NCBI GenBank assembly: GCA_029261215.1
Contig: JAJDBT010000113.1
Location: 2,308 to 66,307 of the forward strand
Reading direction: 5' to 3'
Length of the DNA: 64,000 bases
Source: Nitrospirota bacterium
Lineage (GTDB): Bacteria; Nitrospirota; Nitrospiria; SBBL01; JAADHI01
Shown here: positions 3,991 through 29,451 of the stretch, one piece after another
Layout: each line of letters begins with the position of its first letter
How positions within the stretch are numbered: position 1 is the first letter of the stretch
Translations under genes and position numbers: made by a program
Notes under the pieces: model-generated
Told to the model about the DNA's origin: nothing
Database searches by the model: none
Seen by the model: the letters and a program-made list of their open reading frames with translations, nothing else

Positions 3991-5226
3991 TTAGAGCGCC
4001 TCCACCAGTTTTTTTGTCCATGCAGCGGCTTCCTGCTCTGCAGAAAACAACCTCGACAAATCCAATTGACATTGATCCACCAATGTCTCAACTGCCAAAT
4101 AATCAGACTGCTCAACCTTTTCGACAAGCATGAGCAGACGGCCCAAGTCTCCTTTTCGTTCGAGCAAGGCCTCAGAGATGGGATCGGCCAGGGTAAGATC
4201 CGCCAAAACTTCCGACATGGGCCGAAGGAGCAGGGCATCAATTAACGACAAAATCCCCGTCATAAATGCCATATCGACTTCTTTTTTCTCTCCACCCAGG
4301 GCACCTTTTTGAACGAGAAGTTCCATAAAACGGCCTCTCATCACAGCGGTCTGCAATAAGGGGTTTTGTTGTCCAGGCGTATCTCCGTAAGTAAATAGCA
4401 GCACCTGGGCCCATCGGTTCAGCTGGGCTCTCCCCAGAAGCACGATGGCCTGACGAATGGTTTCAATTTGAGTTCGGATATTCAGTGCAGCAGAATTGAC
4501 AAGACGCAGCAAATGATAACTCAAGGAGGGACTGGCGTGAAATGTTTCTTCTATTTCGCTTAATTCTGCATCCCGTGAAACCTGATACATCAACTTCATG
4601 ACAGAGACACTCGAAGGGTCAATTTTTTTACCGCCGACAATCGATGGGCGTTCAAAATAATAGCCTTGAAATAACTCAAAACCCAATGCCCGCGTCCGAT
4701 CAAATTGATACATATCCTCGACTTTTTCCGCCAAAAAGGTCAGAGGCCAACGTTTGAGCGGCACTAGCATTTCTTCAATGAATTCCGGGCTTACGGTCAT
4801 CAAATCAAATTTGATGATATCAATAGATTCAAAAATGGCTTGATAAGTGGGTTTATAGATAAAGTTAGACAAAGCCAGGGTATACCCCATTGCTTTTAAA
4901 GACTTACAGCGATTGAGCACCCTTTGGTTCATTTCAATGCTTTCAAGCAATTCGATGACCATTTGCGCTCTTGGGAATAATTCGATCCAATCGCTCATTA
5001 AGATTTCACTGTTCACCTTCAAAAAAATCTTATGGCGATTCCCGACAACCTCTTCCAGTCCAAAATCATACAAGGTTTCCATGATGCCATCGACAGAGCT
5101 TTGCTCAGTGCACAACAGATTGGAACCAGCGTTCTGATCAGAACGCAGCAGCACTTCAAATCCGTGCAGCTGATTTTTAAGATCCAGAATGGGTTGTCTG
5201 CTAATATAAATTTTTTCACTCACCAT
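3991..5226 (-). CDS. EAL-like plus HDOD domain signalling protein (COG3434-type)
   Basis: N-terminal EAL-like motifs (QPILD...FEVLLR, AEKVE, QGYYFERP) with LALSNF where DDFG is expected. The C-terminal half is HDOD-like (HLLRLVNSAALN..., LLFTYG). Confidence 0.7.
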   Translation of the reverse strand: MVSEKIYISRQPILDLKNQLHGFEVLLRSDQNAGSNLLCTEQSSVDGIMETLYDFGLEEVVGNRHKIFLKVNSEILMSDWIELFPRAQMVIELLESIEMNQRVLNRCKSLKAMGYTLALSNFIYKPTYQAIFESIDIIKFDLMTVSPEFIEEMLVPLKRWPLTFLAEKVEDMYQFDRTRALGFELFQGYYFERPSIVGGKKIDPSSVSVMKLMYQVSRDAELSEIEETFHASPSLSYHLLRLVNSAALNIRTQIETIRQAIVLLGRAQLNRWAQVLLFTYGDTPGQQNPLLQTAVMRGRFMELLVQKGALGGEKKEVDMAFMTGILSLIDALLLRPMSEVLADLTLADPISEALLERKGDLGRLLMLVEKVEQSDYLAVETLVDQCQLDLSRLFSAEQEAAAWTKKLVEAL

Positions 5227-5330: not shown

Positions 5331-6014
5331 TTATTTTAAAAATAAAATATCGACCCTTCTGTTTTTTGCTCGATTTGATGCGGTGTCATTTGAGACGAGC
5401 GGGCGGCTGTCGCCATATCCCGCCACAGAAAAACGTTCCGGTTTTAGTTTTTGATCTTTTAACATGTAGCGGACAACACTCCCGGCACGCGCCACAGAAA
5501 GATCCCAATTTGAATGAAAACGCGGTGTCGAAATGGCTTGATTGTCAGTATGTCCGCCGACTTGAATCCCATAGGTGGCTCCCTGGGTGATTCGGACAAT
5601 TTCATCCAAAACCTCTTCCGCTTCATGCCGCAGGTTTGCTTCACCCGAATAAAACAAGATCTCGCTCGATACCGAAATAATTACACCTTCTTTTTCCCGC
5701 CTTAACTCCACTTTTCCTTGAAGCCGCGTGGTGTCGAACATTTTTTTGACTTCCGAAGGAGAAAATTGTTTCATGACACGAGGATCAAACAAGCCGGATT
5801 CTGGCGGCATGACGGGCATATCGGTTCCTGACCGGAGCACCCCAATCCCCCCCTGGCGAAAATAACCTAATGTTTCTTCCAACTTTCCCTGGTCTACGGA
5901 TTTCATGGCAAAAAGCAGCACAAAGAAAGTCAGCATCAAACTCAGCAGGTCGGCAAAAGTCGCCATCCACGCGTCGGTATCCTCCTTTTCCTCTACCTTT
6001 TTTTGTCGCCCCAT
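5331..6014 (-). CDS. motB: Flagellar stator protein MotB (OmpA-like peptidoglycan-binding C-terminus)
   Basis: N-terminal TM WMATFADLLSLMLTFFVLLFA carries the conserved channel Asp. OmpA-like C-terminus GGHTDN...NWDLSVARA...NRRVDILF. Its start abuts the stop of the upstream paralogue. Confidence 0.85.
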   Translation of the reverse strand: MGRQKKVEEKEDTDAWMATFADLLSLMLTFFVLLFAMKSVDQGKLEETLGYFRQGGIGVLRSGTDMPVMPPESGLFDPRVMKQFSPSEVKKMFDTTRLQGKVELRREKEGVIISVSSEILFYSGEANLRHEAEEVLDEIVRITQGATYGIQVGGHTDNQAISTPRFHSNWDLSVARAGSVVRYMLKDQKLKPERFSVAGYGDSRPLVSNDTASNRAKNRRVDILFLK

Positions 6015-6713
6015 TTACTCCGCAGCCTCAAGCAATACGATACGAACCCGTCGATTTTTTGCCCTGTTCTTAGGGCGGTCATTGGGTACAACGGGTCTAA
6101 ACTCACTGAAGCCCACAGCCGTCATGCGGCTGGCCGATATCTTTTTTTCATTCTGGAGATACTGCAAAACAGCCGCCGCACGAGAAGCGGAAAGTTCCCA
6201 GTTCGATGGAAATTTCAAACTGGCCACCGGAATATTATCGGTATACCCTTCAATCCTTATAGGATATGGATATTTTTCTATGATTCGCCCCACTTCAGAC
6301 AATAAATGTTTTGATTCCCCTCGAAGAACGGCCTCGCCTGAAGGAAAAAGAAATTTTTCTGCCACATGGATAATCAGGTCATCGCCCTCTTTCGTAATCA
6401 TCGTTTCTTCATCATAGGCATTTTCAGAAATCATCCGCGTAAATTCCCTGCCCACAGAAAGATGGGATTCACCAAAAGAAAGCATCGGCGCACCCGGAAC
6501 TAGGATTTTCTTCCCTTCACTCAGGTGAAGACCGCTGGGCAGCATCCCAAATGTACCCGCCAGTGATCCGAGCGCTTTTTTTATTTTTTTGTCATCATCC
6601 ACTCCAATCGAATTCAAATAGACAAAGAAAATAACCAGGATGAGGTTCAATGAAACCATCATCACCATGAGTCCAGATTTTGCCTCTTCGTCTTCCTGTT
6701 TCTTTCTTCCCAT
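6015..6713 (-). CDS. MotB-like paralogue with no acidic residue in the TM helix
   Basis: Same architecture as MotB (basic N-terminus, one TM, OmpA-like EGYTDN...NWELSASRA...NRRVRIVLL), but the TM reads LMVMMVSLNLILVIFFVYL with no Asp or Glu. Confidence 0.7.
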   Translation of the reverse strand: MGRKKQEDEEAKSGLMVMMVSLNLILVIFFVYLNSIGVDDDKKIKKALGSLAGTFGMLPSGLHLSEGKKILVPGAPMLSFGESHLSVGREFTRMISENAYDEETMITKEGDDLIIHVAEKFLFPSGEAVLRGESKHLLSEVGRIIEKYPYPIRIEGYTDNIPVASLKFPSNWELSASRAAAVLQYLQNEKKISASRMTAVGFSEFRPVVPNDRPKNRAKNRRVRIVLLEAAE

Positions 6714-7586: not shown

Positions 7587-7988
7587 TTACCCCATTGATT
7601 CATTTCTAAGCTGATCAAGATGGGTATTAATTTCAGTTTCGATCTTTTCAACATGCGTATCCGCGTTATAAAGCACTAACTTCTGGAGATGTCCGTAACT
7701 CTCAAGACCAAGATGACTGACAAATTGCACCCCCATGCCCAATGCATTGGTATAGACCACCCTCACCTTCGAATGGACAAGCACCTCGTTGTCGCTGCCA
7801 GGCACAAAGAGCCTCACGATACATTCAGATCCGGCCAGATAGGGTGTTTCCAAATGCACAAAAAGGCCACTGATGCTAATGTTCTCGGTTTTCCCAGTTC
7901 GTATCTGGTGATCGGAGAGACGTTCCATTTCAAGGTCTATTTTCAAAGATATCCGGGTATAGCCTCTTACGTTGATATCAGCATTCAT
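7587..7988 (-). CDS. Stand-alone PilZ domain protein (putative c-di-GMP receptor)
   Basis: It has both c-di-GMP binding motifs: RxxxR (RGYTR) and N-x-S-x-x-G (NISISG). 133 aa, located directly upstream of motA. Confidence 0.75.
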   Translation of the reverse strand: MNADINVRGYTRISLKIDLEMERLSDHQIRTGKTENISISGLFVHLETPYLAGSECIVRLFVPGSDNEVLVHSKVRVVYTNALGMGVQFVSHLGLESYGHLQKLVLYNADTHVEKIETEINTHLDQLRNESMG

Positions 7989-8765: not shown

Positions 8766-9146
8766 TCAGTTTGGAAATATTTTTTCAATTTTTTCTTTTA
8801 AGGCATCGGCCGTAAATGGCTTAACAATGTAATTGGTCGCTCCGGCGCGAATGGCTTCCAATACACATTTCTGTGAGGCCTGGGCCGTCACCATCAATAC
8901 GGGCAGTTCCCTGAAAGCCGCATCTTCGCGAATGGACTTCAACATGCCCAATCCATCCAGGTTTGGCATGTTCCAGTCCGATATGACAAGATCTATTCCA
9001 CCCTCTTTCACCTTGTCCAATCCGACTTGACCATCTTCTGCTTCCTCCAGCTTGCTAAATCCCAGCTGTCTGAGCGCATTTTTTATGATTCTCCGCATTG
9101 TGGACATATCATCCACAATTAAAATTTGCATATTTAAGTCTGGCAT
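8766..9146 (-). CDS. cheY: Chemotaxis response regulator CheY
   Basis: 126-aa single receiver: ILIVDDMSTMRR, SDWNMPNLDG, MVTAQA and YIVKPF. Confidence 0.9.
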   Translation of the reverse strand: MPDLNMQILIVDDMSTMRRIIKNALRQLGFSKLEEAEDGQVGLDKVKEGGIDLVISDWNMPNLDGLGMLKSIREDAAFRELPVLMVTAQASQKCVLEAIRAGATNYIVKPFTADALKEKIEKIFPN

Positions 9147-10028: not shown

Positions 10029-11147
10029 TTACCTTGATGCCATAAGTGATGGGCCTTTTAAAACACAGTGTTCTATCGTTTCAGCCAGCTGATTCAAAGG
10101 GAGCACCTGGTCTGCCAAACCTTCATTGACGACACACGAAGGCATTCCCCAAACCACACTCGTGGCTTCATCCTGGACAATGATGCTCGCCCCTGCTTTT
10201 TTCATCATTCTTGATCCCTGAAGCCCGTCTTTCCCCATGCCGGTCATGATCACACCCAAAGAAAAAGCGCCATATACTTCAGCGACAGATCTAAAAAGAA
10301 CATCTGCGGCCGGGCGACAAGAATTTTCAGGAGGATTCTGATTAATAGACAAACAAAACTTGCTGCCTTTTTGCACGACAAGCATGTGATAATTCCCTGG
10401 CGCAAAATAGGCAGTACCCGCTTTAAGGAACATCCCGTCTTCGCCTTCCAAAACCTGTATCTTTGAATTGCTGTCCAGGCGTTTGGAGAGCAGTTTTGTA
10501 AACAAAGGCGGCATGTGTTGCACAATGACAATGGGTACCGGGAAATCGGCAGATAACAGCGGCAGGACAGCTGAAAGGGCTTCAGGGCCACCCGTCGAAA
10601 TACCAATCGCCACCACCTTCGGTTTATTGATGACAGAATCATCCTGAACATGCCTTGTCGGTGGAACCGCCTCATAGGAAACCCGCTTTGGAAGCGTTAT
10701 TGGCGGGTGCGACCGGGATCGGAATTGCTTGATTTTTGGAATCAATTCGAATGCAATTCCATCAACTCTTTCTTTATAACTCGTATTTCTCGCATCCGTG
10801 CAGGGTTTTGAAACATAGTCATTTGCACCCAGGGACAAGGCTTTAATGGTTTGCATGGCCCCTCGCTCGGTCAGCGTGCTAAACATGATCACCCGAATCA
10901 AAGAACGTTTGGCCCGGAGCGTTTGCAGAACCTCAAACCCATTGCAAACCGGCATTTCAATGTCGAGGATCAAAACATCAGGCGAGAGTTCAGAAATTTT
11001 TTCCAAAGCAATTTCCCCATTAACTGCTGTCCCGACGACATCAATCCCCGGATCAGACTCCAAGGCGTCGCTCACCGCCTTTCTCACCACAATGGAGTCG
11101 TCTACAATCAATACACGCACCGGAGAGGCACCCAATCTATTGAACAT
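10029..11147 (-). CDS. cheB: Chemotaxis response regulator protein-glutamate methylesterase CheB
   Basis: N-terminal receiver (VLIVDDSIVVRK, LDIEMP) plus a methylesterase domain (GISTGGPEAL, IVQHMPPLFT, GMGKDG). Confidence 0.9.
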   Translation of the reverse strand: MFNRLGASPVRVLIVDDSIVVRKAVSDALESDPGIDVVGTAVNGEIALEKISELSPDVLILDIEMPVCNGFEVLQTLRAKRSLIRVIMFSTLTERGAMQTIKALSLGANDYVSKPCTDARNTSYKERVDGIAFELIPKIKQFRSRSHPPITLPKRVSYEAVPPTRHVQDDSVINKPKVVAIGISTGGPEALSAVLPLLSADFPVPIVIVQHMPPLFTKLLSKRLDSNSKIQVLEGEDGMFLKAGTAYFAPGNYHMLVVQKGSKFCLSINQNPPENSCRPAADVLFRSVAEVYGAFSLGVIMTGMGKDGLQGSRMMKKAGASIIVQDEATSVVWGMPSCVVNEGLADQVLPLNQLAETIEHCVLKGPSLMASR

Positions 11148-11520
11148 TTTTGTCCCCTGAAAACCCTAAACTCATTATTTTTTCCTCTAAAATCTCTTTT
11201 GTAAAAGGCTTCATCACATATTCGTCCACGCCAAGCTCCATCGCACTTTCGATCTTGTTTTCAGTGTTGACAGTCGTAACCATAATGACCTTTGGTCGCA
11301 CACTCAGACCGGCTGTTTTCATCCATTTCAATAATGCCATGCCGTCCATGACGGGCATATGCCAATCCAGCAAAATCAGTCGGATGTCTTCATGGGTATT
11401 GAGTTGAGTCATTGCTTCTTTTCCATGCGTGGCTTCCACATAGTCTAGGTGCATACTGGTCAGCATTCTTCCTATAATTTTTCGAATTGGAGAGGCATCA
11501 TCAACGATTAGTACTTTCAT
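11137..11520 (-). CDS. Second CheY-like single-domain response regulator
   Basis: 127-aa receiver: VLIVDDASPIRK, LDWHMPVMDG, YVMKPF. Located between cheW and cheB. Confidence 0.82.
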   Translation of the reverse strand: MKVLIVDDASPIRKIIGRMLTSMHLDYVEATHGKEAMTQLNTHEDIRLILLDWHMPVMDGMALLKWMKTAGLSVRPKVIMVTTVNTENKIESAMELGVDEYVMKPFTKEILEEKIMSLGFSGDKNVQ

Positions 11521-12126: not shown

Positions 12127-14484
12127 TCAAACAAACGTCTCTTCCATCCATTCTGGAATCACACATGAAATCACCTGATCCACATCCAGCAAGTCTGTAC
12201 TCTTCTCCTGAATAACAATCGACCCCCGGATCCCCGGCGTGCTCCCTGATGGATGGTGAAGATGCAAAGGCACATTGACAATATCCATGATCTTGCCGAC
12301 GACCATCCCCACGCTTTTCTGGTTTCGTGTGCACACAATCACCGAAACATGCTCAGAGACTTCAAGGCCGCTCATATCGATATTCAAAGCATTCTCGATA
12401 TGAATAAGCGGCAAAAGATCATCTCGGTACTGAATCACCTCTTGTCCAGAGGAGTGCTCGACTCTATCCGGAAGAAACTCTTCCAATCGGGTGATCTCTG
12501 AAAGAGAGACGGCATAACGGTCTTCCCCATTCATTGAGAAAAGTACAAAGGCTGCTGTCTTTTCTTCTGTTTCAACTACAGACGCTTCTTCAAGGCTCAT
12601 GGCCGTCTCATGGGCCCCGCCCCCCAGTAAACTACCCTCCTCCGCAACCCCCATGACATCCAGAATCAAGGCCACACAGCCATCACCCAATATCGTCGCC
12701 CCAGCCAAATAAGCCAGACTCCTCAATTGCCGGTTGACAGGTTTCACCACAATTTCTTCGCTATCATTGACAAAATCCACAACAAGCCCAAATGAATGTT
12801 CATTCACTTTTAAAACAACAATATTTATCCCGATATCATGTAGCGCCCCCGCACGAGAGGCCTGTTCTGTGAGGCCAAGCACTTCATTCAGATAGATCAG
12901 AGGCAAAAGAACGCCTCTTAATCGATAAAAGTGAGCCCCTCGGATCACTTCAATCTGTTGACGACACTCTTCATTCACCAGAACCAGTTCAATCAGACTT
13001 GCCTGCGGAATCGCAAAAGGCGCTCCGCCTGAAACAACCATCAAAGCCGGGATAATGGCCAGGGTCAAAGGGATTTCTATTCTCATTTCAGTCCCTTCGC
13101 CCAAGCGGCTGCTCATGCTGACCGTCCCGCCGATTTTTTCGATATTTGTTTTAACCACATCCATTCCCACGCCTCGACCGGAAACATGAGTCACCTGCTT
13201 TGCTGTGGATAATCCGGGATGAAAGATTAAATGAAGCGCTTCTCTTTCAGACATGCGGTCGGCCAGGGCTTGTGTGATCAGTTCTTTTTCAATCGCCTTG
13301 ATTTTTACGCGTTCAATATCGATTCCGGCACCGTCATCCGAAATTTGAATAACGATACGACCTCCTTCATGAAAGGCTTTGAGAAAAAGGGTTCCTTTCT
13401 CATTTTTTCCCTGTTCCCTTCGGATATCAGCAGACTCGATTCCATGATCCACCGCATTTCGAATAATATGGGTCATCGGGTCTTTAATCGCTTCAAGCAG
13501 GGTTTTATCCAGTTCTGTTTCGGCCCCTTTCATCACGAGATCAACCGATTTACCATTTGCATGGGCCAAATCACGGATCATGCGTGGAAACTTGTCCCAC
13601 ACGTTTTTAATCGGCTGCATGCGGGTTTTCATCACAGTATCTTGCAGTTCCGTTGTAATGAGATTGATCTGTTGAACGGTTCCGCTTTTCGCCTTTGTGG
13701 AAGATGTTCCGTCCTGATCCCGGGCTTGCTGCAATAATTGATTCCGGGCTAAAACCAGCTCACCCACCAAATTGATCAATTGGTCCAAAAGATGGACATC
13801 CACCCGAATCGCAGATTCTGCCAATGCCGGTTTCTTTTTATCTATGTTTTCATTCCCAGAAACGGGTTTCTCATTTTGGACGGGAGAAACAGTCGCTTCC
13901 TCGTCTGCACGGGCTTCCGTCTTTTTCGAGTCTTTGTTTCCTTCGCTTATCGCTGTTTCACTCGCGGCTTCTTCTGCTTCAGTCCTTGTCTTTTCTGGGG
14001 CCTTATTGAGAAGCGCATCCGCCTCGAGGTCTTTCATGATGGCATCAACTCTCAAGGCTTCTTCATCTGTTATCGGTTTTGATTCCGATGCGCTCGACCC
14101 GCTTTCTAAAAAAGCATCCAGTTTCTGGCGCATGGGGCTATAGTCTGTTTCAGGCTCTTTACGTTCCGTTTCGATATGCGCAAGAATCTCCTTAATGACA
14201 TCCACCGCTTCCAGCAGAATCGTAATGCCATCGGAGGTGACGCGCATCTCGCGATCCCGCATCACAGAAAGGATGTTCTCTGTTCCATGCGCGACATTTT
14301 CAAGTTTTGGCAAACCCAAAAAACCGCAAGTCCCTTTGATGGTATGCACCGCTCGAAAAATGCTTCCTAATAAATCAGCATTCCCCGGATCTTCCTCCAA
14401 AGCGACAAACTCCTGATCAAGGTGTTCAAGACTTTCTGAACACTCGACAAGAAACTCATCTAGAATTTCGTCTTCTTCTTCCAT
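12127..14484 (-). CDS. cheA: Chemotaxis histidine kinase CheA with two C-terminal CheW-like domains
   Basis: Hpt domain (FRAVHTIKGTCGFLG), dimerisation region, HATPase (HIIRNAVDHG, DDGAGI, GRGVGMD), a P5 CheW-like domain, and a second CheW-like repeat (FVLFSMNGEDRYAVSLSEITRLEE...GMVVGKIMDIV). Confidence 0.9.
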   Translation of the reverse strand: MEEEDEILDEFLVECSESLEHLDQEFVALEEDPGNADLLGSIFRAVHTIKGTCGFLGLPKLENVAHGTENILSVMRDREMRVTSDGITILLEAVDVIKEILAHIETERKEPETDYSPMRQKLDAFLESGSSASESKPITDEEALRVDAIMKDLEADALLNKAPEKTRTEAEEAASETAISEGNKDSKKTEARADEEATVSPVQNEKPVSGNENIDKKKPALAESAIRVDVHLLDQLINLVGELVLARNQLLQQARDQDGTSSTKAKSGTVQQINLITTELQDTVMKTRMQPIKNVWDKFPRMIRDLAHANGKSVDLVMKGAETELDKTLLEAIKDPMTHIIRNAVDHGIESADIRREQGKNEKGTLFLKAFHEGGRIVIQISDDGAGIDIERVKIKAIEKELITQALADRMSEREALHLIFHPGLSTAKQVTHVSGRGVGMDVVKTNIEKIGGTVSMSSRLGEGTEMRIEIPLTLAIIPALMVVSGGAPFAIPQASLIELVLVNEECRQQIEVIRGAHFYRLRGVLLPLIYLNEVLGLTEQASRAGALHDIGINIVVLKVNEHSFGLVVDFVNDSEEIVVKPVNRQLRSLAYLAGATILGDGCVALILDVMGVAEEGSLLGGGAHETAMSLEEASVVETEEKTAAFVLFSMNGEDRYAVSLSEITRLEEFLPDRVEHSSGQEVIQYRDDLLPLIHIENALNIDMSGLEVSEHVSVIVCTRNQKSVGMVVGKIMDIVNVPLHLHHPSGSTPGIRGSIVIQEKSTDLLDVDQVISCVIPEWMEETFV

Positions 14485-14537: not shown

Positions 14538-14565
14538 GTATCGGCAGTACAATAAAATTTCTTTA
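14538..14565 (-). promoter_or_regulatory. Sigma-28 (FliA)-type promoter candidate upstream of cheA
   Basis: The minus strand reads CTAAAG-N15-GCCGATAC (consensus TAAA-N15-GCCGATAA; here the spacer is N16 counted from TAAA). It lies about 55 nt upstream of the cheA ATG at 14484. Confidence 0.45.
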
Positions 14566-14609: not shown

Positions 14610-15920
14610 TCAGCGCGCGTTCAATAAGTAGTCCACCTCAACCGTGTTTCCACCATTCAAAAAATGAACCCTGCTCGACAGTGAATGAATCAAGGTGATG
14701 CCTTTTCCAGAAGGGACACTCGTATGATCGTCTTGCCTTTTAGGGTAGTCATGAGTGTCAAAACCTTCCCCGCTGTCTTCAATACGGAGCCTTATCCAAT
14801 CTTTGCCAGACTCCGCCCTCCGTTCCATAAAAATATCGACGCGGCCTTCTTCAAGAAGATGCAGTCTCTGGGAACGTTGGTTTAAATACCCTTCAAAACC
14901 CGTAGAAGACGATTTGAGCCCCGAATCCAATCCGAGCAATCCATGATCAACGGCATTGGTATAAAGTTCTGTCAGGATAAGAAAAAGACGCTGTGTATCC
15001 CTCTGCGCGATGCTGGCTTGTTTTAGCCAGGTCAGTAAAATCGGGAGTACATCAATGTTTTTAATATCTGCTTCACTTAAATGAAGCGAAACACGCCAGT
15101 GATGCGGACCACTGTTTTGAGATTCTTTTGGAAGTGCCTCAATCGCTTTTTGAGGAAAAACGCCAAGACCGCAATTCACCACAATAAGAGAAATATCATC
15201 TTCCGCTTCCTTCTCGCCGAGATAATCCATCACGCTTTTCTTTAAGTTTTGGAAACGATGGGGCGCGTCTGCATGAAATAGCGTCTCCTCTAATCTCGAG
15301 GTGCCAAAAAGCTGATCGCTTTCATCTCTCGCATCAATTAAACCATCTGAGTGCAGATAGAGCTGCCCAGGCTTGTCCCATTGAAAATAGGAGACTTTCT
15401 CATCAAAATCTTTGTCGGAAAGCACACCGATCGGCAGGTGATTCGATTTCCAGCGCTGAACAATCTCACCGTCCTCACTCATAAAAAAAGGAGTCGGTCC
15501 GCCGCCATTCCAAATCTCAATGGTTCGATTTGACGGATTCACAGAAGCCAGCGTCGCGGCAATAAAACGATCCCTGGGTAAGAGGGTATGCATTTTTTTG
15601 TTTAATTCTTTGGCAATGCTCCCGATTGGAAAACCTTTGCCCGTCATCGCATAAAAGATTTCTGAAACAGGCATCATACAAAGCGCTGTGGCAAGTCCGT
15701 GTCCAGTGCCGTCCCCTAAAATGACATGCAGACGATCTCCCGCCGTCATCCGGGCGGCAATCACATCTCCGGAAAACTCTGCGGCGGGAAGAAGCCAATG
15801 CTGGAACAAATCGGGATCGACTTGAATATCACGAACCAGATTCCCCATGACGTAGCGGGCCAGACTCAGGCTTTTTTCAGTGCCGTCGCGATACCTTTGA
15901 TGATGAGTGACTGAATTCAC
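14610..15920 (-). CDS. Fused PP2C (SpoIIE-type) phosphatase and RsbW/SpoIIAB-type Ser kinase (HATPase_c), HsbR-like but without a receiver domain
   Basis: PP2C motifs ILGDGTGHG, LHSDGLID and DDISLIVV. C-terminal HATPase has N-box ELYTNAVDHG, G1 DSGEGF and G2 GKGITLI. Only about 50 aa precede the PP2C domain. Confidence 0.8.
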   Translation of the reverse strand: MNSVTHHQRYRDGTEKSLSLARYVMGNLVRDIQVDPDLFQHWLLPAAEFSGDVIAARMTAGDRLHVILGDGTGHGLATALCMMPVSEIFYAMTGKGFPIGSIAKELNKKMHTLLPRDRFIAATLASVNPSNRTIEIWNGGGPTPFFMSEDGEIVQRWKSNHLPIGVLSDKDFDEKVSYFQWDKPGQLYLHSDGLIDARDESDQLFGTSRLEETLFHADAPHRFQNLKKSVMDYLGEKEAEDDISLIVVNCGLGVFPQKAIEALPKESQNSGPHHWRVSLHLSEADIKNIDVLPILLTWLKQASIAQRDTQRLFLILTELYTNAVDHGLLGLDSGLKSSSTGFEGYLNQRSQRLHLLEEGRVDIFMERRAESGKDWIRLRIEDSGEGFDTHDYPKRQDDHTSVPSGKGITLIHSLSSRVHFLNGGNTVEVDYLLNAR

Positions 15921-15937
15921 GGTGCATCCTTTTCTGA

Positions 15938-16249
15938 TTACTGGATCGCAAACAACTTGCCGAAGTTCACAATCTCTAAAATCTCGCGAACGGTCTCCTG
16001 ACAGTTTGTGAGTTTGATCATCCTGTTTTCTTCATCTGCCCGCTCTTTAAACAAAAGCAGCATGCCGAGCGCAGAGCTGTCCATATAATCCACTCCGCTT
16101 AAATCAACCGTAATCGCACCCGTGGACACATCATTGAGTCCCGATTCATAGGCCTTCCTGAATTCCTTATTTGAATTAAAATCAAAACGTCCCGCCAGAA
16201 GAAATTTGAGTTTCCCCTGATCTTTATTAATTGTGACACTCAGTGACAT
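15938..16249 (-). CDS. STAS-domain anti-sigma-factor antagonist (SpoIIAA/RsbV/HsbA-like)
   Basis: 103 aa with DLSGVDYMDSSALGML, which contains the conserved phosphorylatable Ser context (DSS-x-LG). Confidence 0.85.
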   Translation of the reverse strand: MSLSVTINKDQGKLKFLLAGRFDFNSNKEFRKAYESGLNDVSTGAITVDLSGVDYMDSSALGMLLLFKERADEENRMIKLTNCQETVREILEIVNFGKLFAIQ

Positions 16250-16288: not shown

Positions 16289-16912
16289 TCAAGGCGCTAT
16301 CCCGTTTTTCGGGGACACCCCTTCAATACAGTCCTTTTTATAGGCCTCTTCACGAATCAGGATGGTCTTGTTTCGCATTCGGGTGATTTTTTTCATCAGC
16401 ACACGACCGGTATCTGTATAAAAATAAATCTTCCTCGGGTAAACATCGCCAATATCTGACTTCAGCAGCCTGAGATTCTCTTTTTTTAGATATTCCACGA
16501 TCCACTCAAAAGGATTCGGGGCCTTCGTTTTCATCCCCTCTTCGAGTGCCGCACCTCCAAAAACCTTCACTTCCATCCTGTTTTTGGCTCCCCCCTGCTT
16601 GATGACTTCGCTGACCAGACGATCCATCGCATCCCGGCGATCCGTCTCGGCGCTTTTCTTCACTTCATCATCAAGACCTTCATTTGCATTGGGAACGATG
16701 AAATGATTCATTCCGCCAATTCTGGCCACCGGATCCGTTACACAGGCGGAAAAAAATGAACCGACAACCGTATACACCACAGTCGGCGTTCGGCTGACAT
16801 AAAATTCACCTGGCAGAATCTGGGCGACTTTGTGCGGAAACCGTCCATCACAAATCAGCCGAATGTGCGAAAAGTCGCCATGACCTGCTCCATTCTCAGT
16901 ATGAGAAGACAT
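16289..16912 (-). CDS. cheD: CheD-like chemoreceptor glutamine deamidase homologue (atypical active site, extended termini)
   Basis: CheD core: LPGEFYVS...YTVVGSFFSACVTDPVARIGGMNHFIVP...KVFGGA. GSF sits where GSC (the catalytic Cys) is expected. AAGGAA Shine-Dalgarno before the ATG. Confidence 0.68.
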   Translation of the reverse strand: MSSHTENGAGHGDFSHIRLICDGRFPHKVAQILPGEFYVSRTPTVVYTVVGSFFSACVTDPVARIGGMNHFIVPNANEGLDDEVKKSAETDRRDAMDRLVSEVIKQGGAKNRMEVKVFGGAALEEGMKTKAPNPFEWIVEYLKKENLRLLKSDIGDVYPRKIYFYTDTGRVLMKKITRMRNKTILIREEAYKKDCIEGVSPKNGIAP

Positions 16913-17029: not shown

Positions 17030-17057
17030 TTATCGGTTTTCCGGAGCCAGGTCTTTA
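17030..17057 (-). promoter_or_regulatory. Sigma-28 (FliA)-type promoter candidate upstream of cheD
   Basis: The minus strand reads CTAAAG-N15-ACCGATAA. It begins 16 nt after the fliA stop and lies about 120 nt upstream of the cheD ATG at 16912. Confidence 0.45.
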
Positions 17058-17072
17058 GCCAAGAGATCGCTA

Positions 17073-17819
17073 TCATTCAGATAAGACCCCCTTCAATTTC
17101 AACATTGCTCTGGAATGAAGCTGACACACACGTGATTCAGACACTTTTAAAACCAGGCCAATTTCTTTCATGGTCAGTTCTTCGTCATAATAAAGCGAGA
17201 CCACCATCTGCTCCTTTTTGTTGAGATGCTCAATCGCTTCAATCATTCGATCCCTGGCATTTTGTGAAAGCAGGAAAAGCAGCGGATCTTCACTATTCGG
17301 ATCGGCCATCGCTTCAATCAATCGCCACTCTCCGCCGTCTTTAATGCCCAGATCATCCAGACTCAAAAGCGTCGCCCCCCGTGCCTGAAAAACAAAGTCA
17401 TCAAAAACGGCCTGATCCATTTCAAGGGCCTCTATGAGCTCTTCTTCTGTCGGAGGTCGCCCCTTTATTTTGACAATCTCATCAGAGGCTTTTTTTAACT
17501 TTTTTGTCTTGTCGTGAACAGATCTCGGCACCCAGTCGAGTGTGCGGATTTCGTCGAGCATCGCCCCTCGTATTCTAAATTCAGCATAGGTTTTAAAGCG
17601 GGCATTAATAGACGGATCATACCGTTCCAGCGCCTTCATCAAACCGATAACTCCGGAGTGAATCAAGTCTTCAACGTCAAGAGACGAAGGCAGTCTGTAG
17701 GCCAGTCGTTGCGCGATCATGCGAATCATTGGCGCAAATTCTTCAAGAAGCGTGTCCATTTGCAAGTCATCCGGTTTTTCCTTAATCACTTCCGGCTTTG
17801 CTTCTTTCGCTGTTTTCAT
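17073..17819 (-). CDS. fliA: Flagellar sigma factor FliA (sigma-28)
   Basis: Sigma-70 family regions 2-4 (LIHSGVIGLMKALERYDP, YAEFRIRGAMLDEIR, LSLYYDEELTMKEIGLVLKVSESRVCQLHSRA). Positioned after flhF-flhG. Confidence 0.9.
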   Translation of the reverse strand: MKTAKEAKPEVIKEKPDDLQMDTLLEEFAPMIRMIAQRLAYRLPSSLDVEDLIHSGVIGLMKALERYDPSINARFKTYAEFRIRGAMLDEIRTLDWVPRSVHDKTKKLKKASDEIVKIKGRPPTEEELIEALEMDQAVFDDFVFQARGATLLSLDDLGIKDGGEWRLIEAMADPNSEDPLLFLLSQNARDRMIEAIEHLNKKEQMVVSLYYDEELTMKEIGLVLKVSESRVCQLHSRAMLKLKGVLSE

Positions 17820-22176: not shown

Positions 22177-23241
22177 TCATCCCCGTTTTCCCTTGAGCTT
22201 GTAAACATAAGAAAGAATCTCCGCGACGGCTCTGTAAATCGCAGATGGAATCGGATGTCCCACTTCAACTGTTTTGAAAAGGGACCGTGCAATCGGTTTG
22301 TTTTCAACCAAGGGCACACCATTTTCCCGTGCAATTTCCCTGATTTTTTCTGCCATAAACCCCGCGCCTTTGGCGACAACGACTGGCGCAGCCATGCGGT
22401 CCGGTTTATAACTTAACGCCACGGCCAAATGGGTCGGGTTGGTAATCACCACATCGGCTTTGGGCACATCCGCCATCATGCGTTTCTTCGCCATTTCTCT
22501 TTGCAAACTGCGAATCCTCGATTTCACCAGAGGCGTCCCTTCGGTCTGCTTATTCTCTTCTTTGATCTCTTGCTTGCTCATGCGAAGCTTCTTCTCATGT
22601 TCCCACCACTGGAAACCGAAATCGGCCGCGCCAATAACCGCCACAACCCCGCCACAACGCAGAATCAGCGTTGTCATCATTTTTCCCGATAAATAAATCA
22701 TTTCTCCGGGCGTCAATTGTCCCAAAACAAGCACGGACGGCATTTTTTCAAGAATGGCAAAATAGGCCACACTGCCAATGACAAGAAACTTCAAAAATGT
22801 CTTGAGGCCGTTCACAAGCCCTTCTATCGACAAAACACGTTTAAACCCTGAAAGTGGATTGATTCGCCCCCAGTCTGGCATCAGCGGGTCTGTCGTAAAG
22901 AGAACCCCATGCTGAACCACGATAGAGAGCCCGCCAACCAGTGCCATAAAAGCGGTCACGGGCATGATCATCATAAAAAACTGCATCATGCCTTTTTGCA
23001 TCAGCTCATTAAAAATAGCAGGGGTCATCTCAAGAGATGAAAGACCTGAAAATGTTTCAATCATCGTTGTTCGCATTCCCAAAATCAGATCCAATCCAAA
23101 GTTTTTAAAAATGAGCACAGAGAATAAAATCAATAAAGCGGAACTCAGCTCTCGGCTGGTGACCACCTGCCCCTTGCGGCGGGATTCTTCCCGCCGCTTA
23201 GGAGTCGCCCGCTCTGTTTTTTCCTGATCATCCGCCGCCAT
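22177..23241 (-). CDS. flhB: Flagellar export apparatus switch protein FlhB
   Basis: N-terminal EKTERATPKRREE and the autocleavage motif NPTH (VVITNPTHLAVAL). Confidence 0.95.
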   Translation of the reverse strand: MAADDQEKTERATPKRREESRRKGQVVTSRELSSALLILFSVLIFKNFGLDLILGMRTTMIETFSGLSSLEMTPAIFNELMQKGMMQFFMMIMPVTAFMALVGGLSIVVQHGVLFTTDPLMPDWGRINPLSGFKRVLSIEGLVNGLKTFLKFLVIGSVAYFAILEKMPSVLVLGQLTPGEMIYLSGKMMTTLILRCGGVVAVIGAADFGFQWWEHEKKLRMSKQEIKEENKQTEGTPLVKSRIRSLQREMAKKRMMADVPKADVVITNPTHLAVALSYKPDRMAAPVVVAKGAGFMAEKIREIARENGVPLVENKPIARSLFKTVEVGHPIPSAIYRAVAEILSYVYKLKGKRG

Positions 23242-23290: not shown

Positions 23291-24076
23291 CTATGGCCTC
23301 ATCCGCATGAGCAAGCCCGGAAAAACCGTTCTTAAAGTGGTGATTTCTTCTGTCAAAATGCCGACAAACATCGGGAGCGATAAACCCACAATTAAAAGTC
23401 CCAGGGTAATGGTGACTGGAAAACTAAAGAGCAGCACGTTCATTTGAGGAATGACGCGGGCAAAGATGCCGATGGTGACATTGGCCATGAGCAGTGCAAC
23501 GATGACCGGAATGCCGATTTTGAGACCAATTAAAAAGATTCTGGATGCCAGCTTCATGAGGTATTCAATCAGCGGACCCGAAGGATAAAAACCGCTTGAA
23601 GGAATCAGCTCGAAACTTAAGACCAAGCTTTCGATTAGAATATAATGCCCATTGACCGCCAAAAAGATCAGCATGGCCACCATGCCCTGCATCCGGGCAA
23701 TCAGCGAGACCTGTTTGTTTGAAATCGGATCAAACAGGTTCGCGCTGCCAAAACCCATCTGTAAGCCAATGACCTCCGAACCCATCTCAACGGCTGAAAA
23801 CAGCATATTGATGGCAAGACTCATAATCAGCCCGATCAGGACTTCACCAAGTAAACCCAGGGTCAGTGAAAGGAAGGTAAGGGGCGGCTGCGCCTGAATG
23901 TCCATCACTTGAAAGAGGACAAAAGTCATGGAAATCACCAGCATGACTTTCACCATGACCGGCACACTGGCACCACCGATCAGCGGCATTGCCGCCAAAA
24001 AGGCGCCGACACGGAACAAAATAAAGAGGAAGGCCGCTTGGTTTTCTAATATATTTTGAATCAGGGGTATCGTCAT
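23291..24076 (-). CDS. fliR: Flagellar export apparatus protein FliR
   Basis: 261-aa polytopic membrane protein in the fliPQR-flhB order. Confidence 0.88.
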   Translation of the reverse strand: MTIPLIQNILENQAAFLFILFRVGAFLAAMPLIGGASVPVMVKVMLVISMTFVLFQVMDIQAQPPLTFLSLTLGLLGEVLIGLIMSLAINMLFSAVEMGSEVIGLQMGFGSANLFDPISNKQVSLIARMQGMVAMLIFLAVNGHYILIESLVLSFELIPSSGFYPSGPLIEYLMKLASRIFLIGLKIGIPVIVALLMANVTIGIFARVIPQMNVLLFSFPVTITLGLLIVGLSLPMFVGILTEEITTLRTVFPGLLMRMRP

Positions 24077-24089
24077 CTTTTCATCCAGT

Positions 24090-24359
24090 TCAGCCTGTGT
24101 AATTGGGAAGGTTCATCAAAATGCCGCTGGTAAATCCGACAATGACCCTCAGCATCCAGGGAAGGAAAAAAGCCAGGGCAAGCCCTGCGATCAATATTTT
24201 GGGCAAAAACGTTAAAGTGGCCTCGTTGATCTGTGTCACGGCTTGAAACAGACTGACCACCAAACCGATCAGAAGACTGGAAACCAGAACAGGCGCGGCC
24301 AGCATCACGGAAACTTCAACCGTCCGCTGAACCATCTCTATGACAAATTCCGGCGTCAT
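24090..24359 (-). CDS. fliQ: Flagellar export apparatus protein FliQ (89 aa; the annotated 122-aa ORF is over-extended)
   Basis: The internal start MTPEFVIEMVQRTVEVSVMLAAPVL... matches FliQ length and N-terminus. The upstream extension overlaps the fliP 3' end (fliP stop at 24427). Confidence 0.88.
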   Translation of the reverse strand: MTPEFVIEMVQRTVEVSVMLAAPVLVSSLLIGLVVSLFQAVTQINEATLTFLPKILIAGLALAFFLPWMLRVIVGFTSGILMNLPNYTG

Positions 24360-24426
24360 TCGCACACTCCACGACACAGCAATAGATACTTCAAAAAACG
24401 ACCTCCTGTTCCCATGTCCGCCACAT

Positions 24427-25230
24427 TCATGCGAAGCCTTTGACCAGAGACCCGACAATCAAATACCAGCCGTCTGCAAGCACAAAAAGGATGAGTTTAA
24501 AGGGAAGAGAAATCATCACTGGCGGCAACATCATCATCCCCATCGACATGAGAATGCTGGCCACCACGATATCAATAACGAGAAAGGGCAAAAAAACGAG
24601 AAAACCGATTTGAAATGCCGTCCGTAACTCGCTGATCATGAAGGCCGGAATGATGGTAAACGTGGGCAGTTCGGATGGATTTTTGGGCTGAGGAAGTTTC
24701 GCAATTTTTACAAATAAAGAAAGGTCTTTTTCACGAACCTGTTTCAACATAAAATTTCGAACCGGAACCATCGCAAGATCAAGGGCATCCTGCTGAGAAA
24801 TCTCCTCTTCGAGATAGGGCTGCAAGGCTTCAGTATTCACTTGCTGCCAGACAGGCGCCATCACAAGAAATGTCAAGAAAAGGGCCAGGCCAATCAAGAC
24901 CTGAGTCGGCGGCGATTGCTGCGTCCCAAAGGCTTGACGCATAAAAGAGAGCACAACGACGATACGGGTAAAAGCGGTCATCATGATAAAAATCGCCGGA
25001 GCAAGCGAAAGAACGGTCAATAAGATTAAAATCTGGATGGCGACAGAAAAACGCTCGGAAGACCCTTCTCCCAGACTCAATGTGACCGACGGCGCGCCAG
25101 AGACCGCTTCTTGTGCGACGGCAAGTGAAGACAAATAAAAAACACAAAAAACCGTTACCCCCACGATCAGCAGCAGATAAAGAGAAGATGATTTTTTTTC
25201 TTTGAGATTTCTTTTCAATCTAATCCACAT
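24427..25230 (-). CDS. fliP: Flagellar export apparatus protein FliP
   Basis: Signal sequence plus conserved FRIVVVLSFMRQAFG, TAFQIGFLVFLPFLVIDIVVASILMSMGMMMLPP. Confidence 0.92.
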   Translation of the reverse strand: MWIRLKRNLKEKKSSSLYLLLIVGVTVFCVFYLSSLAVAQEAVSGAPSVTLSLGEGSSERFSVAIQILILLTVLSLAPAIFIMMTAFTRIVVVLSFMRQAFGTQQSPPTQVLIGLALFLTFLVMAPVWQQVNTEALQPYLEEEISQQDALDLAMVPVRNFMLKQVREKDLSLFVKIAKLPQPKNPSELPTFTIIPAFMISELRTAFQIGFLVFLPFLVIDIVVASILMSMGMMMLPPVMISLPFKLILFVLADGWYLIVGSLVKGFA

Positions 25231-25525
25231 CCTTCATTGTTTTTTTCTGATGCAACAAGGGCGATTCATCCAATCGCGTCAGTAGGGATATCTGATTTGG
25301 CGTAACGCCCACCACAAGATATTGTTCTCCGACTTCTATCACCGAGACCTCTCTTTTTGGACCCAGATAGGTTGTCGAAATGACCTGAATCAAAGGCGCA
25401 TTTTGCCACCGACTAAACCGGGAGCGCATAAAACGCTTTGCCCCAAACGCCACGGCCAGGATAAGACCTAAAACCAAGAGGAGTGAAGAGATCATCTTCA
25501 CCAAACTTGAGAAGGGATCATCCAT
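25220..25525 (-). CDS. fliO: Flagellar protein FliO
   Basis: 101 aa, single TM then ...LGPKREVSVIEVGEQYLVVGVTPNQISLL. Located upstream of and overlapping fliP. Confidence 0.72.
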   Translation of the reverse strand: MDDPFSSLVKMISSLLLVLGLILAVAFGAKRFMRSRFSRWQNAPLIQVISTTYLGPKREVSVIEVGEQYLVVGVTPNQISLLTRLDESPLLHQKKTMKDVD

Positions 25526-25633
25526 TTCTCAGCCTTTTTTTTCTCCAAAAAACAAGGATTTCTGAATCACTTAACTCAACAAAAATCATCATGCAGTACA
25601 TTCCTTTTAAGATCGCCATGCATCCTTCGTTTT

Positions 25634-26140
25634 TTATCCAAGGTTTTGAATGCGGTCAACGGTGCTCACAATATCGGTCAAACGCACACCAAATTTTTCG
25701 TTGACAACCACAACATCCCCCCGGGCCACCAGCTTATCCCCGATAAGGACATCCATCGGTTCACCCGACAATTTTTCCAACTCAACAATGGAGCCTTGTC
25801 CCAGCTGCAAAAGTTCCTTGATCAGCATGCGGGTATTCCCCAGGTTCACCGTCACCTGAAGCGGCACATCCAGCAAAAAGTCAATATTCCCTAAAGGCGG
25901 GCCTCCTTCTGTCGGCTCCAGTGTCGAGAGCGCTTTGGGTTTCATTTGTTTCTTGACCTCAGGCGCTTGATCAGGCGCTTCGGATACCGGTTTGGCTTTC
26001 GCCTCTGCGCCGCTGTTTTCTTTTGGCGATTCTTCTTGAGCAAGCGCTTGCGCTTCTTCTTTCATCGCCTCAGCCATTTCACGCGCCATCTCATCTTCTC
26101 CCTCTTCAGGAGCAGCCTGTTTTTCTAAATCATCTGCCAT
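25634..26140 (-). CDS. fliN: Flagellar motor switch protein FliN
   Basis: Acidic N-terminus and a C-terminal SpoA domain (LDVPLQVTVNLGNTRMLIKELLQLGQGSIVELEKLSGEPMDVLIGDKLVARGDVVVVNEKFGVRL). Confidence 0.88.
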   Translation of the reverse strand: MADDLEKQAAPEEGEDEMAREMAEAMKEEAQALAQEESPKENSGAEAKAKPVSEAPDQAPEVKKQMKPKALSTLEPTEGGPPLGNIDFLLDVPLQVTVNLGNTRMLIKELLQLGQGSIVELEKLSGEPMDVLIGDKLVARGDVVVVNEKFGVRLTDIVSTVDRIQNLG

Positions 26141-26155
26141 TGCGTTCCTCCAGCA

Positions 26156-27151: not shown

Positions 27152-27160
27152 TTTTTCCGC

Positions 27161-27703: not shown

Positions 27704-27801
27704 GCATTCCTCCCAAGGGACGCAGCACACCCCTGTTAAAAAATCTATGTCAGAAAAACGGCCGTGCTGCACAGCCCGCCTTCCCGTTCACTGACTGTAC
27801 T

Positions 27802-28063: not shown

Positions 28064-28089
28064 CCTTCACAGACGAGGTTGATGGGAGA

Positions 28090-29394: not shown

Positions 29395-29451
29395 GATGTT
29401 CCTCCTTAAAGTAAATTATTCCATGAATAACGGGCCGTATACGCTCTTCGA

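Follow-up and report, generated by a model that had tools for sequence, protein, structure and literature searches.

A receiver-less PP2C-kinase fusion, its STAS partner and an orphan CheD beside fliA in Nitrospirota: a probable remnant of an F7-type chemosensory cluster

Organization of the locus

The window, meaning the whole 64-kb stretch of Nitrospirota DNA that was analysed, carries on its minus strand a gene pair located between cheD/fliA and the flagellar cheA-W-Y-B-R-Y-Z operon. The larger gene (14610-15920, minus strand) encodes a PP2C-kinase fusion of 436 aa and has a GTG start with an AAGGA Shine-Dalgarno sequence upstream. Its partner (15938-16249, minus strand) encodes a STAS anti-sigma-factor antagonist of 103 aa, and 17 nt separate the STAS stop from the fusion start. 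Upstream of the pair lie an orphan cheD (207 aa, 16289-16912, minus strand) and then fliA (sigma-28; 17073-17819, minus strand), which is identified by sigma-70 regions r2, r3 and r4 and by NCBIfam TIGR02479 (FliA_WhiG, 247 bits against a cut-off of 189.6). Both ORFs of the pair are found at the positions given in the initial annotation, and each motif quoted there is present in the translations. Rfam gives no match at gathering score anywhere in the 64-kb window.

The 160-nt spacer between fliA and cheD contains a sigma-28-type promoter motif, TAAAG-N15-ACCGATAA (17031-17057, minus strand), which can also be written TAAAGACC-N12-ACCGATA[A]. The motif begins at the 16th nt past the fliA stop, in agreement with the promoter previously annotated there. 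A second motif of the same type, TAAAGAAA-N12-GCCGATA (14539-14565, minus strand), is situated upstream of cheA and bounds the cheD-STAS-fusion unit on its 3' side. Both were identified by pattern matching, and the pattern TAAAG-N14-16-CCGATA has these 2 matches in the 64-kb window against 0.08 expected. The motif after fliA would drive cheD-STAS-fusion; fliA is a candidate driver of the unit and a candidate target. Among related loci, the equivalent of the motif upstream of cheA is conserved in L002, L006, L007 and L008. The fliA-proximal motif is also present in L006, between fliA and the STAS gene; in L002, where 57 nt separate fliA from cheD, it is missing, so that FliA dependence is not clade-wide.

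Neither flgM nor a stand-alone Hpt gene, both of which had been described as missing from the locus, was found among the window ORFs scanned; the scan covered the window apart from some short ORFs and the flagellar ones at 23291-31492 and 43863-45212. The sole Hpt domain among the scanned ORFs is that of CheA. Beyond the visible 64 kb, the genome could still carry an intact F7 cluster, flgM, an Hpt protein or a stand-alone receiver that acts in trans.

Domain structure and conserved residues

The fusion consists of two domains recognized by Pfam, an N-terminal SpoIIE domain (PF07228, 1.1e-38, residues 61-249, encoded at 15174-15740) and a C-terminal HATPase_c_2 domain (PF13581, 6.6e-12, residues 294-428, encoded at 14637-15041), both encoded on the minus strand. 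On the N-terminal side, conservation of the phosphatase fold sets in near residue 15. The sequence contains the motifs ILGDGTGHG, HSDGLID and DDISLIVV of the first domain and ELYTNAVDHG, DSGEGF and GKGITLI of the second. When 24 homologues are aligned the PP2C residues D52, D70, D192, D241 and D242 are invariant, as are the kinase residues E318, N322, D325, D382, G384, G386 and G407, and G405 is kept in at least 90%. By these features the fusion is assigned as a PP2C/SpoIIE phosphatase joined to a GHKL serine kinase/anti-sigma domain of the RsbW/SpoIIAB type, receiver-less and with its catalytic motifs intact.

The best PDB match, by both sequence and fold, is 3KE6, the RsbU and RsbW domains of Rv1364c. 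In the AF2 model of the fusion (pLDDT 79.8) the individual domains are confident; the pTM is 0.57 and the relative domain orientation is left uninterpreted. An N-terminal helix (residues 2-28) is 77% conserved between the window protein and L002.

The absence of a receiver domain, as initially proposed, is borne out by the lack of a PF00072 match in the Pfam scan of the fusion, by the 17-nt gap to the STAS gene, and by the alignment, where the N-terminus of the fusion falls within the REC-PP2C linker of relatives of 565-570 aa. Below 50% identity the nearest relatives are REC-PP2C-HATPase_c_2 proteins of this length, one of which is named by JGI 'HptB-dependent secretion and biofilm response regulator'. 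The nearest proteins outside the receiver-less clade (see below) are likewise receiver-bearing, at 46-49% identity.

The STAS protein matches Pfam STAS (PF01740, 1.3e-14), STAS_2 (2.8e-13) and TIGR00377 (6.5e-14), and the solved structure nearest to it is TM1442. Its translation contains the motif DLSGVDYMDSSALG that had been quoted for it. Ser58 (codon 16076-16078) is its predicted phosphorylation site and lies in DSSALGML, a sequence shared by 90% or more of the STAS proteins from the fetched loci. The HMM searches against Pfam and NCBIfam thus confirm the original PP2C, kinase and STAS domain calls. The fusion has the PP2C metal-binding Asp residues, the GHKL N, G1 and G2 boxes, the descent and the adjacent STAS gene with its Ser that characterize the CrsR-CrsA/HsbR-HsbA partner-switch family, and lacks the N-terminal receiver. 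With receiver-bearing family members as its nearest relatives outside the clade and the catalytic and phospho-acceptor motifs conserved, the proposed kinship holds, and on sequence grounds the fusion and STAS protein belong to this family.

The cheD product matches Pfam CheD (PF03975, 1.4e-16) and NCBIfam CheD models at up to 6e-50, below their cut-offs (169 against 223 bits). It also aligns with T. maritima CheD (2F9Z, phmmer 7e-18), placing GSFF opposite GSCV. The catalytic triad of T. maritima CheD is Cys27/His44/Thr21 (PMC7022378). The window protein is a CheD by fold and sequence family and keeps the Thr and His, whereas Phe53 (codon TTT, 16754-16756) stands in place of the Cys and the triad is incomplete. 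No other CheD of the fetched loci lacks this Cys, which is also present in 118 of the 120 closest database CheD clusters. Other invariant residues have been lost as well, and the protein evolves faster than the CheD of complete clusters. Its identity is 47-50% to in-cluster CheDs of Nitrospirota relatives compared with 31-36% to proteobacterial CheDs. The retained CheD is accordingly a candidate Cys-less pseudo-enzyme, any role of which would be non-catalytic. The earlier idea that the switch might act on the CheD/chemoreceptor branch is weakened, because the window CheD has no catalytic Cys.

Gene neighbourhoods and order of losses

A survey of related loci shows the pair to be conserved in linkage with che genes, as the initial annotation would predict. 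In about 50 of 80 it ends a chemosensory cluster in the order (cheY-cheA-cheW)-MCP-cheR-cheD-cheB-STAS-fusion. The same order has been published for 'stage 1 F7' chemosensory systems (PMC7184735), and the Shewanella che1 cluster with CrsR/CrsA has the same layout, the fusion there carrying a receiver (PMC9855816). F7-type clusters widely close at their 3' end with cheR-cheD-cheB-STAS-fusion, an ancestral arrangement. The linkage to cheD is therefore inherited and is not a new functional coupling. A search for Nitrospirota-specific literature on the cheD-STAS-fusion module found nothing relevant.

Outside Nitrospirota, the fusions of Gallionellaceae L033, L038, L039, L040 and L045 have a PAS or HAMP domain in place of the receiver. 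The pair is followed directly by flhB-flhA-flhF-flhG-fliA in L033, L039, L044 and L064, and after a 1.8-kb gap in L072. In five Sulfuricella loci rpoS is convergent to a receiver-bearing pair, which by association points to a sigma factor as the target.

The stage 1 F7 set (cheY-cheA-cheW-aer2-like MCP-cheR-cheD-cheB) is reduced in the window to cheD alone; the sister genomes L003, L007, L008, L014 and L086 have it in full. Four of these (L003, L007, L008 and L086) pair a receiver-less fusion with a cluster that is still complete and has a stand-alone cheY. In the window and L002 nothing but cheD-STAS-fusion is left, and in L006 nothing but STAS-fusion, cheD having gone altogether. The receiver-bearing L014 and L088 (48-49% identity) occupy the same chromosomal slot, L014 after fliA and L088 before the flagellar cheA operon. 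The window triplet is a deletion remnant of an F7-type chemosensory cluster.

In a distance-based neighbour-joining tree (200 bootstraps) the receiver-less Nitrospirota form a clade (199/200) that sits among receiver-bearing sequences, and the window, L002 and L006 form a reduced subclade (198/200). The grouping of receiver-bearing Nitrospirota as sister of the receiver-less clade is weak (99/200). Tree and gene content together indicate that the receiver was lost first, with the cluster still complete, and that the cluster core was deleted later in the nested subclade. A stand-alone CheY (11137-11520 or 8766-9146) was considered as the split-off receiver and rejected, because both cheY genes are likewise present in the corresponding operon of the receiver-bearing L088.

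Three further short, receiver-less proteins are not counted in the clade. P0010 and P0031 fall outside it in the neighbour-joining tree, and P0071 has 38% identity only. P0031 and P0071 could represent truncated gene calls; P0010 is distinct, being followed by a PAS histidine kinase.

All three retained genes are under purifying selection. Between the window and L002, pN and pS are 0.106 and 0.77 for STAS, 0.21 and 0.78 for the fusion, and 0.25 and 0.77 for CheD; synonymous sites are saturated between the window and L002/L006 (pS 0.64-0.88), so these values can be read as pN << pS and not as dN/dS. The constraint on STAS and the fusion is similar to that on CheW, CheB and CheR. That cheD was spared while the cheR side and cheB were removed, and is itself under purifying selection, hints at a retained role beyond that of a pure relic.

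Relation to known partner switches and interpretation

The pair had been likened to HsbR/HsbA of Pseudomonas aeruginosa. As the window triplet is the remnant of an F7-type cluster, the che-cluster-embedded CrsR/CrsA of Shewanella oneidensis (che1/F7-type) is a closer analogue than the HptB-fed HsbR/HsbA. CrsR likewise combines PP2C and GHKL domains in one polypeptide with the STAS gene immediately upstream, in a cluster that also encodes CheR, CheD, CheB and MCPs. CrsR, compared here by its description, differs from the window fusion in having an N-terminal receiver, and the window is without the cheY, cheA, cheW, MCP, cheR and cheB of such a cluster. The HsbR-HsbA systems of P. aeruginosa and P. 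putida have the same PP2C-kinase core and a STAS protein with the Ser in DSS. The HsbR receiver is phosphorylated by HptB, whereas the window fusion has no receiver and no Hpt-only gene was found among the scanned ORFs. P. putida offers a precedent for FliA-dependent transcription of such a pair: hsbA and hsbR lie there in the flagellar cluster under a FliA-dependent promoter, and FliA activity is unaffected by HsbA; the HsbA-FlgM link reported for P. aeruginosa was not reproduced there (10.1101/2024.11.25.625174). RsbU/RsbV/RsbW and SpoIIE/SpoIIAA/SpoIIAB of Bacillus follow the same logic of PP2C phosphatase, STAS protein and GHKL kinase/anti-sigma factor, except that there the phosphatase and the kinase are two distinct polypeptides, with a regulatory region of its own at the N-terminus of each phosphatase.

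The initial annotation knew of no described receiver-less version sharing an operon with cheD. Receiver-less relatives headed by PAS or HAMP domains do exist in other lineages, and the PP2C-kinase fusion Rv1364c of Mycobacterium tuberculosis (3KE6) has been crystallized. The Gallionellaceae fusions likewise follow cheR-cheD-cheB-STAS, with a sensor domain where the window fusion has no input domain at all. Rv1364c also joins a PP2C domain to an RsbW-type kinase in one chain without a receiver, at only ~15% sequence identity to the window fusion and with no link to chemotaxis or flagellar genes. Its chain additionally begins with a PAS domain and ends with a STAS domain. The window locus is not of this single-chain type, its STAS being a separate gene and PAS being absent. 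What is particular here is the 'bare' PP2C-kinase fusion without any input domain; the family and the cheD linkage were already known.

The locus is probably best explained as a relic of an F7-type cluster, similar to Shewanella Che1 or Vibrio cluster III, in which the output pair was kept, the receiver and then the cluster core were deleted, and the switch is now uncoupled from phosphotransfer. The receiver would have been deleted in place. Deletion of the cluster core, with cheY-cheA-cheW-MCP-cheR removed upstream of cheD and cheB downstream, would then have reduced the cluster to cheD-STAS-fusion, caught between fliA and the flagellar cheA operon. By homology, the GHKL domain would phosphorylate Ser58 of the STAS protein and may hold a sigma factor, the PP2C domain would strip the phosphate, and the phosphorylation state of the STAS protein would set which partners bind each other. 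As the receiver and the CheA that fed it are both gone, the switch is most likely uncoupled from phosphotransfer, and would be set by sigma-28-dependent expression together with intrinsic factors (ATP/ADP, a divalent metal or another partner). The pair most likely works as an autonomous partner switch, with expression driven by a sigma-28-type promoter. The HsbR receiver is reported to turn that protein from kinase to phosphatase; deletion of a receiver is not equivalent to an unphosphorylated receiver, so either activity, kinase or phosphatase, may dominate here. In Shewanella and Pseudomonas the target is RpoS, which to our knowledge occurs only in Pseudomonadota and is missing from Nitrospirota; it is not expected as the target of the switch in this lineage. 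The target expected instead is another sigma factor, most obviously FliA, or a FlgM-like protein.

This need for a new target is shared by the unlikely alternative that the locus forms a new, dedicated module, its receiver-less switch being driven by FliA and feeding back on sigma-28, directly or via FlgM, or acting on the CheD/chemoreceptor branch, with cheD co-opted as a functional partner. The sigma-28-type promoter directly past fliA in the window and L006, the sparing of cheD by at least two deletions and its purifying selection, and the HsbA-FlgM binding reported in P. aeruginosa would all suit such a module. However, the gene order is inherited and not newly assembled, the promoter is missing in L002, no flgM lies nearby, and the CheD nucleophile and other invariant residues are lost, with cheD absent from L006; moreover, P. 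putida hsbAR has the flagellar location and FliA-dependent promoter and yet HsbA is without effect on FliA activity. Feedback of the pair on sigma-28 may nonetheless operate. A more elaborate version, which we regard as very doubtful, has the switch rewired to a self-contained sigma-28 regulator, with the GHKL domain as anti-sigma-28 factor (beside or without FlgM), STAS as its antagonist, and Cys-less CheD as a non-catalytic adaptor reporting chemoreceptor state; flagellar late-gene expression would then be tied to receptor status in a FliA-driven feedback loop.

Control in trans, whereby a stand-alone CheY-like protein or CheA (from the flagellar operon or an unlinked F7 cluster) binds the N-terminal helix or the PP2C domain and so replaces the receiver, is quite unlikely. 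The coexistence of full cluster, cheY and receiver-less fusion in L003, L007, L008 and L086 suggests that array and switch existed side by side long after receiver loss, and the conservation of the N-terminal helix fits a binding site. Yet neither flagellar-operon CheY is a split-off receiver, given that both occur in L088, and the reduced subclade dropped the F7-type cheY and cheA while keeping the switch, as expected if it was already uncoupled. Least probable is a functionless remnant heading for loss. Stepwise reduction from complete cluster to triplet to pair is indeed seen, and CheD has lost its active site and evolves faster than in complete clusters, but independently assembled genomes have the three ORFs intact at a saturated pS of ~0.77 with a pN of just 0.11-0.25, and every phosphatase and kinase catalytic residue is kept along with the STAS Ser.

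The role of the CrsR/CrsA and HsbR/HsbA switches, and signalling from array to switch, are still debated. Read as a relic of an F7-type cluster, this lineage is a natural dissection of such a system, in which loss of the receiver came first, the array could be dispensed with later, and the kinase-phosphatase/STAS core stayed under purifying selection. Its Cys-less, conserved CheD could reveal deamidation-independent functions of CheD. The clade offers a minimal two-protein system, together with close receiver-bearing relatives (48-49% identity), for studying the effect of the receiver on the balance of kinase and phosphatase. That the core was kept after the loss of both receiver and array argues that it has a function independent of phosphotransfer.

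Gene order and domain structure of the switch

All genes of the window between ~5.3 and 31.5 kb lie on the minus strand. flhB (22177–23241) is followed in order by flhA, flhF, flhG and fliA (17073–17819, FliA/WhiG score above the curated cut-off), and then by cheD (16289–16912; Pfam CheD, 1.4e-16), the gene for a 103-residue STAS protein (15938–16249) and that for a 436-residue phosphatase–kinase fusion (14610–15920). Next comes cheA (12127–14484), with cheW, cheY, cheB, cheR, cheY, cheZ, a PilZ gene directly downstream of cheZ (7587–7988), motA and two consecutive motB/OmpA-like genes (6015–6713 and 5331–6014) behind it. Also present are sigma-54 regulators resembling FleQ and FleS/FleR, and other flagellar genes. 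The motility region is flanked by several c-di-GMP-related genes, encoding, besides the PilZ protein, an EAL–HDOD protein (3991–5226) and a PAS–GGDEF–EAL protein (56579–58756), both on the minus strand. Neither FlgM nor an Hpt-only protein was found among the scanned ORFs of the window (all but a handful of short ones and the flagellar ones at 23291–31492 and 43863–45212), in line with the initial annotation.

The domains proposed in that annotation are borne out by Pfam, which places SpoIIE/PP2C at residues 61–249 (1.1e-38) and HATPase_c_2 at residues 294–428 (6.6e-12) of the fusion and assigns its partner to STAS (1.3e-14); all the motifs quoted for the two proteins are present in the translations. 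As had been claimed, there is no receiver: Pfam detects none in the fusion, whose gene starts 17 nt after the STAS stop, which leaves no space to encode one. A search against a set of 5.8 billion proteins returned 10 receiver-less proteins (433–453 residues, 52–100% identity, counting the window's own), followed without a break in identity by receiver–PP2C–HATPase_c_2 proteins of 565–570 residues (at most 49%), one of which is named ‘HptB-dependent secretion and biofilm response regulator’ by JGI. The N-terminus of the window fusion aligns within the receiver–phosphatase linker of these longer relatives.

Across an alignment of 24 sequences the PP2C metal ligands (D52, D70, D192, D241 and D242) and the kinase N box (E318, N322, D325), G1 box (D382, G384, G386) and G2 box (G405, G407) are invariant or nearly so. 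Among the STAS proteins encoded by the fetched loci, DSSALGML with the predicted acceptor Ser58 is kept in at least 90%. The top solved relative of the fusion, alike in sequence and fold, is the RsbU and RsbW domains of M. tuberculosis Rv1364c (pdb 3KE6), followed by the PP2C domains of SiaA and RssB. The AlphaFold model (pLDDT 79.8, pTM 0.57) consists of an N-terminal helix (2–28), a PP2C sandwich, a disordered linker (254–269) and a GHKL domain with a flexible lid.

Comparing the window with the related locus L002, synonymous sites are saturated (pS ~0.77) and pN is 0.106 for STAS and 0.21 for the whole fusion (0.17 for the PP2C domain, 0.25 for the kinase domain and 0.37 for the inter-domain linker), with CheW, CheB and CheR at 0.19–0.22 for comparison. 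Given such low pN against saturated pS, the switch is maintained by selection.

Chemosensory origin and reduction in Nitrospirota

Eighty loci with a related pair were fetched, one genome per species, and their ORFs labelled by BLAST against the proteins of the window and of L003, a Nitrospirota locus. In ~50 of the 80 the pair ends a (cheY-cheA-cheW)-MCP-cheR-cheD-cheB-STAS-fusion cluster at its 3′ side, with a receiver on nearly all of these fusions. This order is published for stage-1 F7 systems (PMC7184735), and the Shewanella che1 locus, encoding CrsR and CrsA, shares it (PMC9855816). The association of cheD with the STAS/phosphatase–kinase pair is therefore ancestral and previously described.

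Variation on this theme is found elsewhere in the family. Five Sulfuricella-type loci carry a sigma-factor gene, convergent, immediately after a receiver-bearing pair (L011 5652–6599, L012 6892–7830, L013 11288–12229, L017 11445–12404 and L024 8041–8982, minus strand); those of L013 and L024 are rpoS by NCBIfam (441–452 bits, curated cut-off 394) and the other three by sequence similarity only, which fits the reported CrsR–RpoS link. In Gallionellaceae and relatives the cluster-terminal fusion has PAS or HAMP domains in place of the receiver (L033 6664–9171; L038 9185–11302; L040 9479–11266), with two tandem paralogues in some loci (L039 9155–11287 and 11799–13598; L045 7365–9512 and 9452–11299). 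A second cheD-like ORF occurs in L045, L046, L051 and L053. flhB-flhA-flhF-flhG-fliA directly follows the cluster in L033, L039, L044 and L064, and follows it after a 1.8-kb gap in L072. Outside the main clade, a 437-residue receiver-less fusion (P0010, L087 1310–2623) has a multi-PAS histidine kinase behind it in place of cheA, and so may represent an independent loss of the receiver.

Within Nitrospirota the loci form a reduction series. Two retain the receiver: L014 (48% identity) has fliA, a complete cluster, STAS-fusion and then cheY-cheZ, and L088 (49%), a short contig that does not cover the region upstream of the pair, has STAS-fusion directly before the flagellar cheA-W-Y-B-R-Y-Z operon. 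The fusions of L003, L007, L008 and L086 (a Manganitrophaceae MAG, a ‘Nitrospira sp.’ MAG and two metagenome contigs; 52–62%, 444–453 residues) are receiver-less and end a complete or contig-truncated cluster, followed by the flagellar che operon. The order is fliA-cheD-STAS-fusion-cheA in the window and L002 (71%) and fliA-STAS-fusion-cheA in L006 (63%), all receiver-less. A neighbour-joining tree of the PP2C–kinase region (200 bootstraps) supports the receiver-less clade (199/200), with the complete-cluster L003 at its base, and the reduced-cluster subclade of the window, L002 and L006 (198/200).

These data show the pair to descend from modules that formed the output of chemosensory clusters and bore a receiver, and to have lost first the receiver and then the array. 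In the most parsimonious history the receiver would have been deleted in place, switch and array would have stood side by side for a long time, cheY-cheA-cheW-MCP-cheR and, separately, cheB would then have been deleted, and L006 would additionally have dropped cheD. Both stand-alone CheYs in the flagellar operon can be dismissed as the detached receiver, because receiver-bearing L088 carries both. In L014 an unlabelled ORF lies in the 713-nt stretch (383–1094) between fliA and the cheY that opens the complete cluster, at the position where stage-1 F7 clusters have an extra anti-sigma antagonist.

Promoters and the orphan CheD

A sigma-28-type motif, TAAAGACC-N12-ACCGATAA (17031–17057, minus strand), starts at the 16th nucleotide past the fliA stop, where the initial annotation had placed a promoter. 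A second, TAAAGAAA-N12-GCCGATA (14539–14565, minus strand), precedes cheA; these are the two matches to the pattern in 64 kb, against 0.08 expected. The cheA-proximal motif is kept in five genomes (the window, L002 at 11325, L006 at 11341, L007 and L008), so the flagellar che genes form a FliA-type transcription unit distinct from the switch genes. The fliA-proximal motif is common to the window and L006 and absent from the 57-nt fliA–cheD spacer of L002. A third sigma-28-like motif, TAAA-N17-GCCGATA (39708–39735, plus strand), lies at the 3′ end of a flgB-like ORF (39326–39736), just upstream of a flgC-like ORF (39786–40220).

The catalytic triad of T. maritima CheD is Cys27/His44/Thr21 (PMC7022378). 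On alignment to 2F9Z, the cysteine is replaced by Phe53 in the CheD of the window (codon 16754–16756, minus strand, TTT, one transversion from TGT) and of L002, the only exceptions in the fetched loci and in the nearest 120 CheD clusters of the database (Cys in 118). Other near-invariant residues, among them G131 and N134, are altered too. CheD ordinarily diverges less than the fusion (identity ratio 1.04–1.33 in pairs of complete-cluster genomes), but in pairs with the window or L002 it is the less conserved of the two (0.87–1.01). The ORF is nevertheless intact, with pN 0.25 against pS 0.77 (window and L002), and was spared though neighbours on both sides were deleted. Purifying selection on an ORF without the cysteine makes it a candidate pseudo-enzyme; the orphan CheD is read as such, still serving some non-catalytic role, or as a gene in early decay.

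Mechanism and significance

The genes, domains and promoter of the initial annotation are thus confirmed, and its interpretation is partly supported. The pair is a derivative of a known family that lacks receiver and input domain, in the remnant of a known chemosensory cluster type; its phosphatase, kinase and STAS motifs are intact and it is under purifying selection. By homology with HsbR/HsbA and CrsR/CrsA, the GHKL domain would phosphorylate STAS Ser58 and could sequester a sigma factor, the PP2C domain would undo the phosphorylation, and the phospho-state of STAS would set its choice of partner. In HsbR the kinase is reportedly inhibited, and the phosphatase activated, once the receiver is phosphorylated. 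As there is no receiver here, the balance must be set by other means, which may be expression level, ATP/ADP, metal availability or a further partner, and either activity may prevail.

RpoS is not known outside Pseudomonadota. Candidate targets are therefore a sigma factor, whether FliA or a different one, a FlgM-like protein and, as HsbD or CfcR are for HsbA, an enzyme of c-di-GMP metabolism. The hsbAR-hptB genes of P. putida lie in a flagellar cluster with a weak FliA-dependent promoter, yet deleting or overexpressing HsbA variants leaves FliA-dependent transcription unchanged (10.1101/2024.11.25.625174). Given this precedent, location and promoter alone would point only weakly to sigma-28 as the target.

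No description of the bare variant, the reduction series or a Cys-less CheD was found in the literature searched. The locus offers a natural test of the contributions that receiver and array make to such switches, and a minimal system for their biochemistry.
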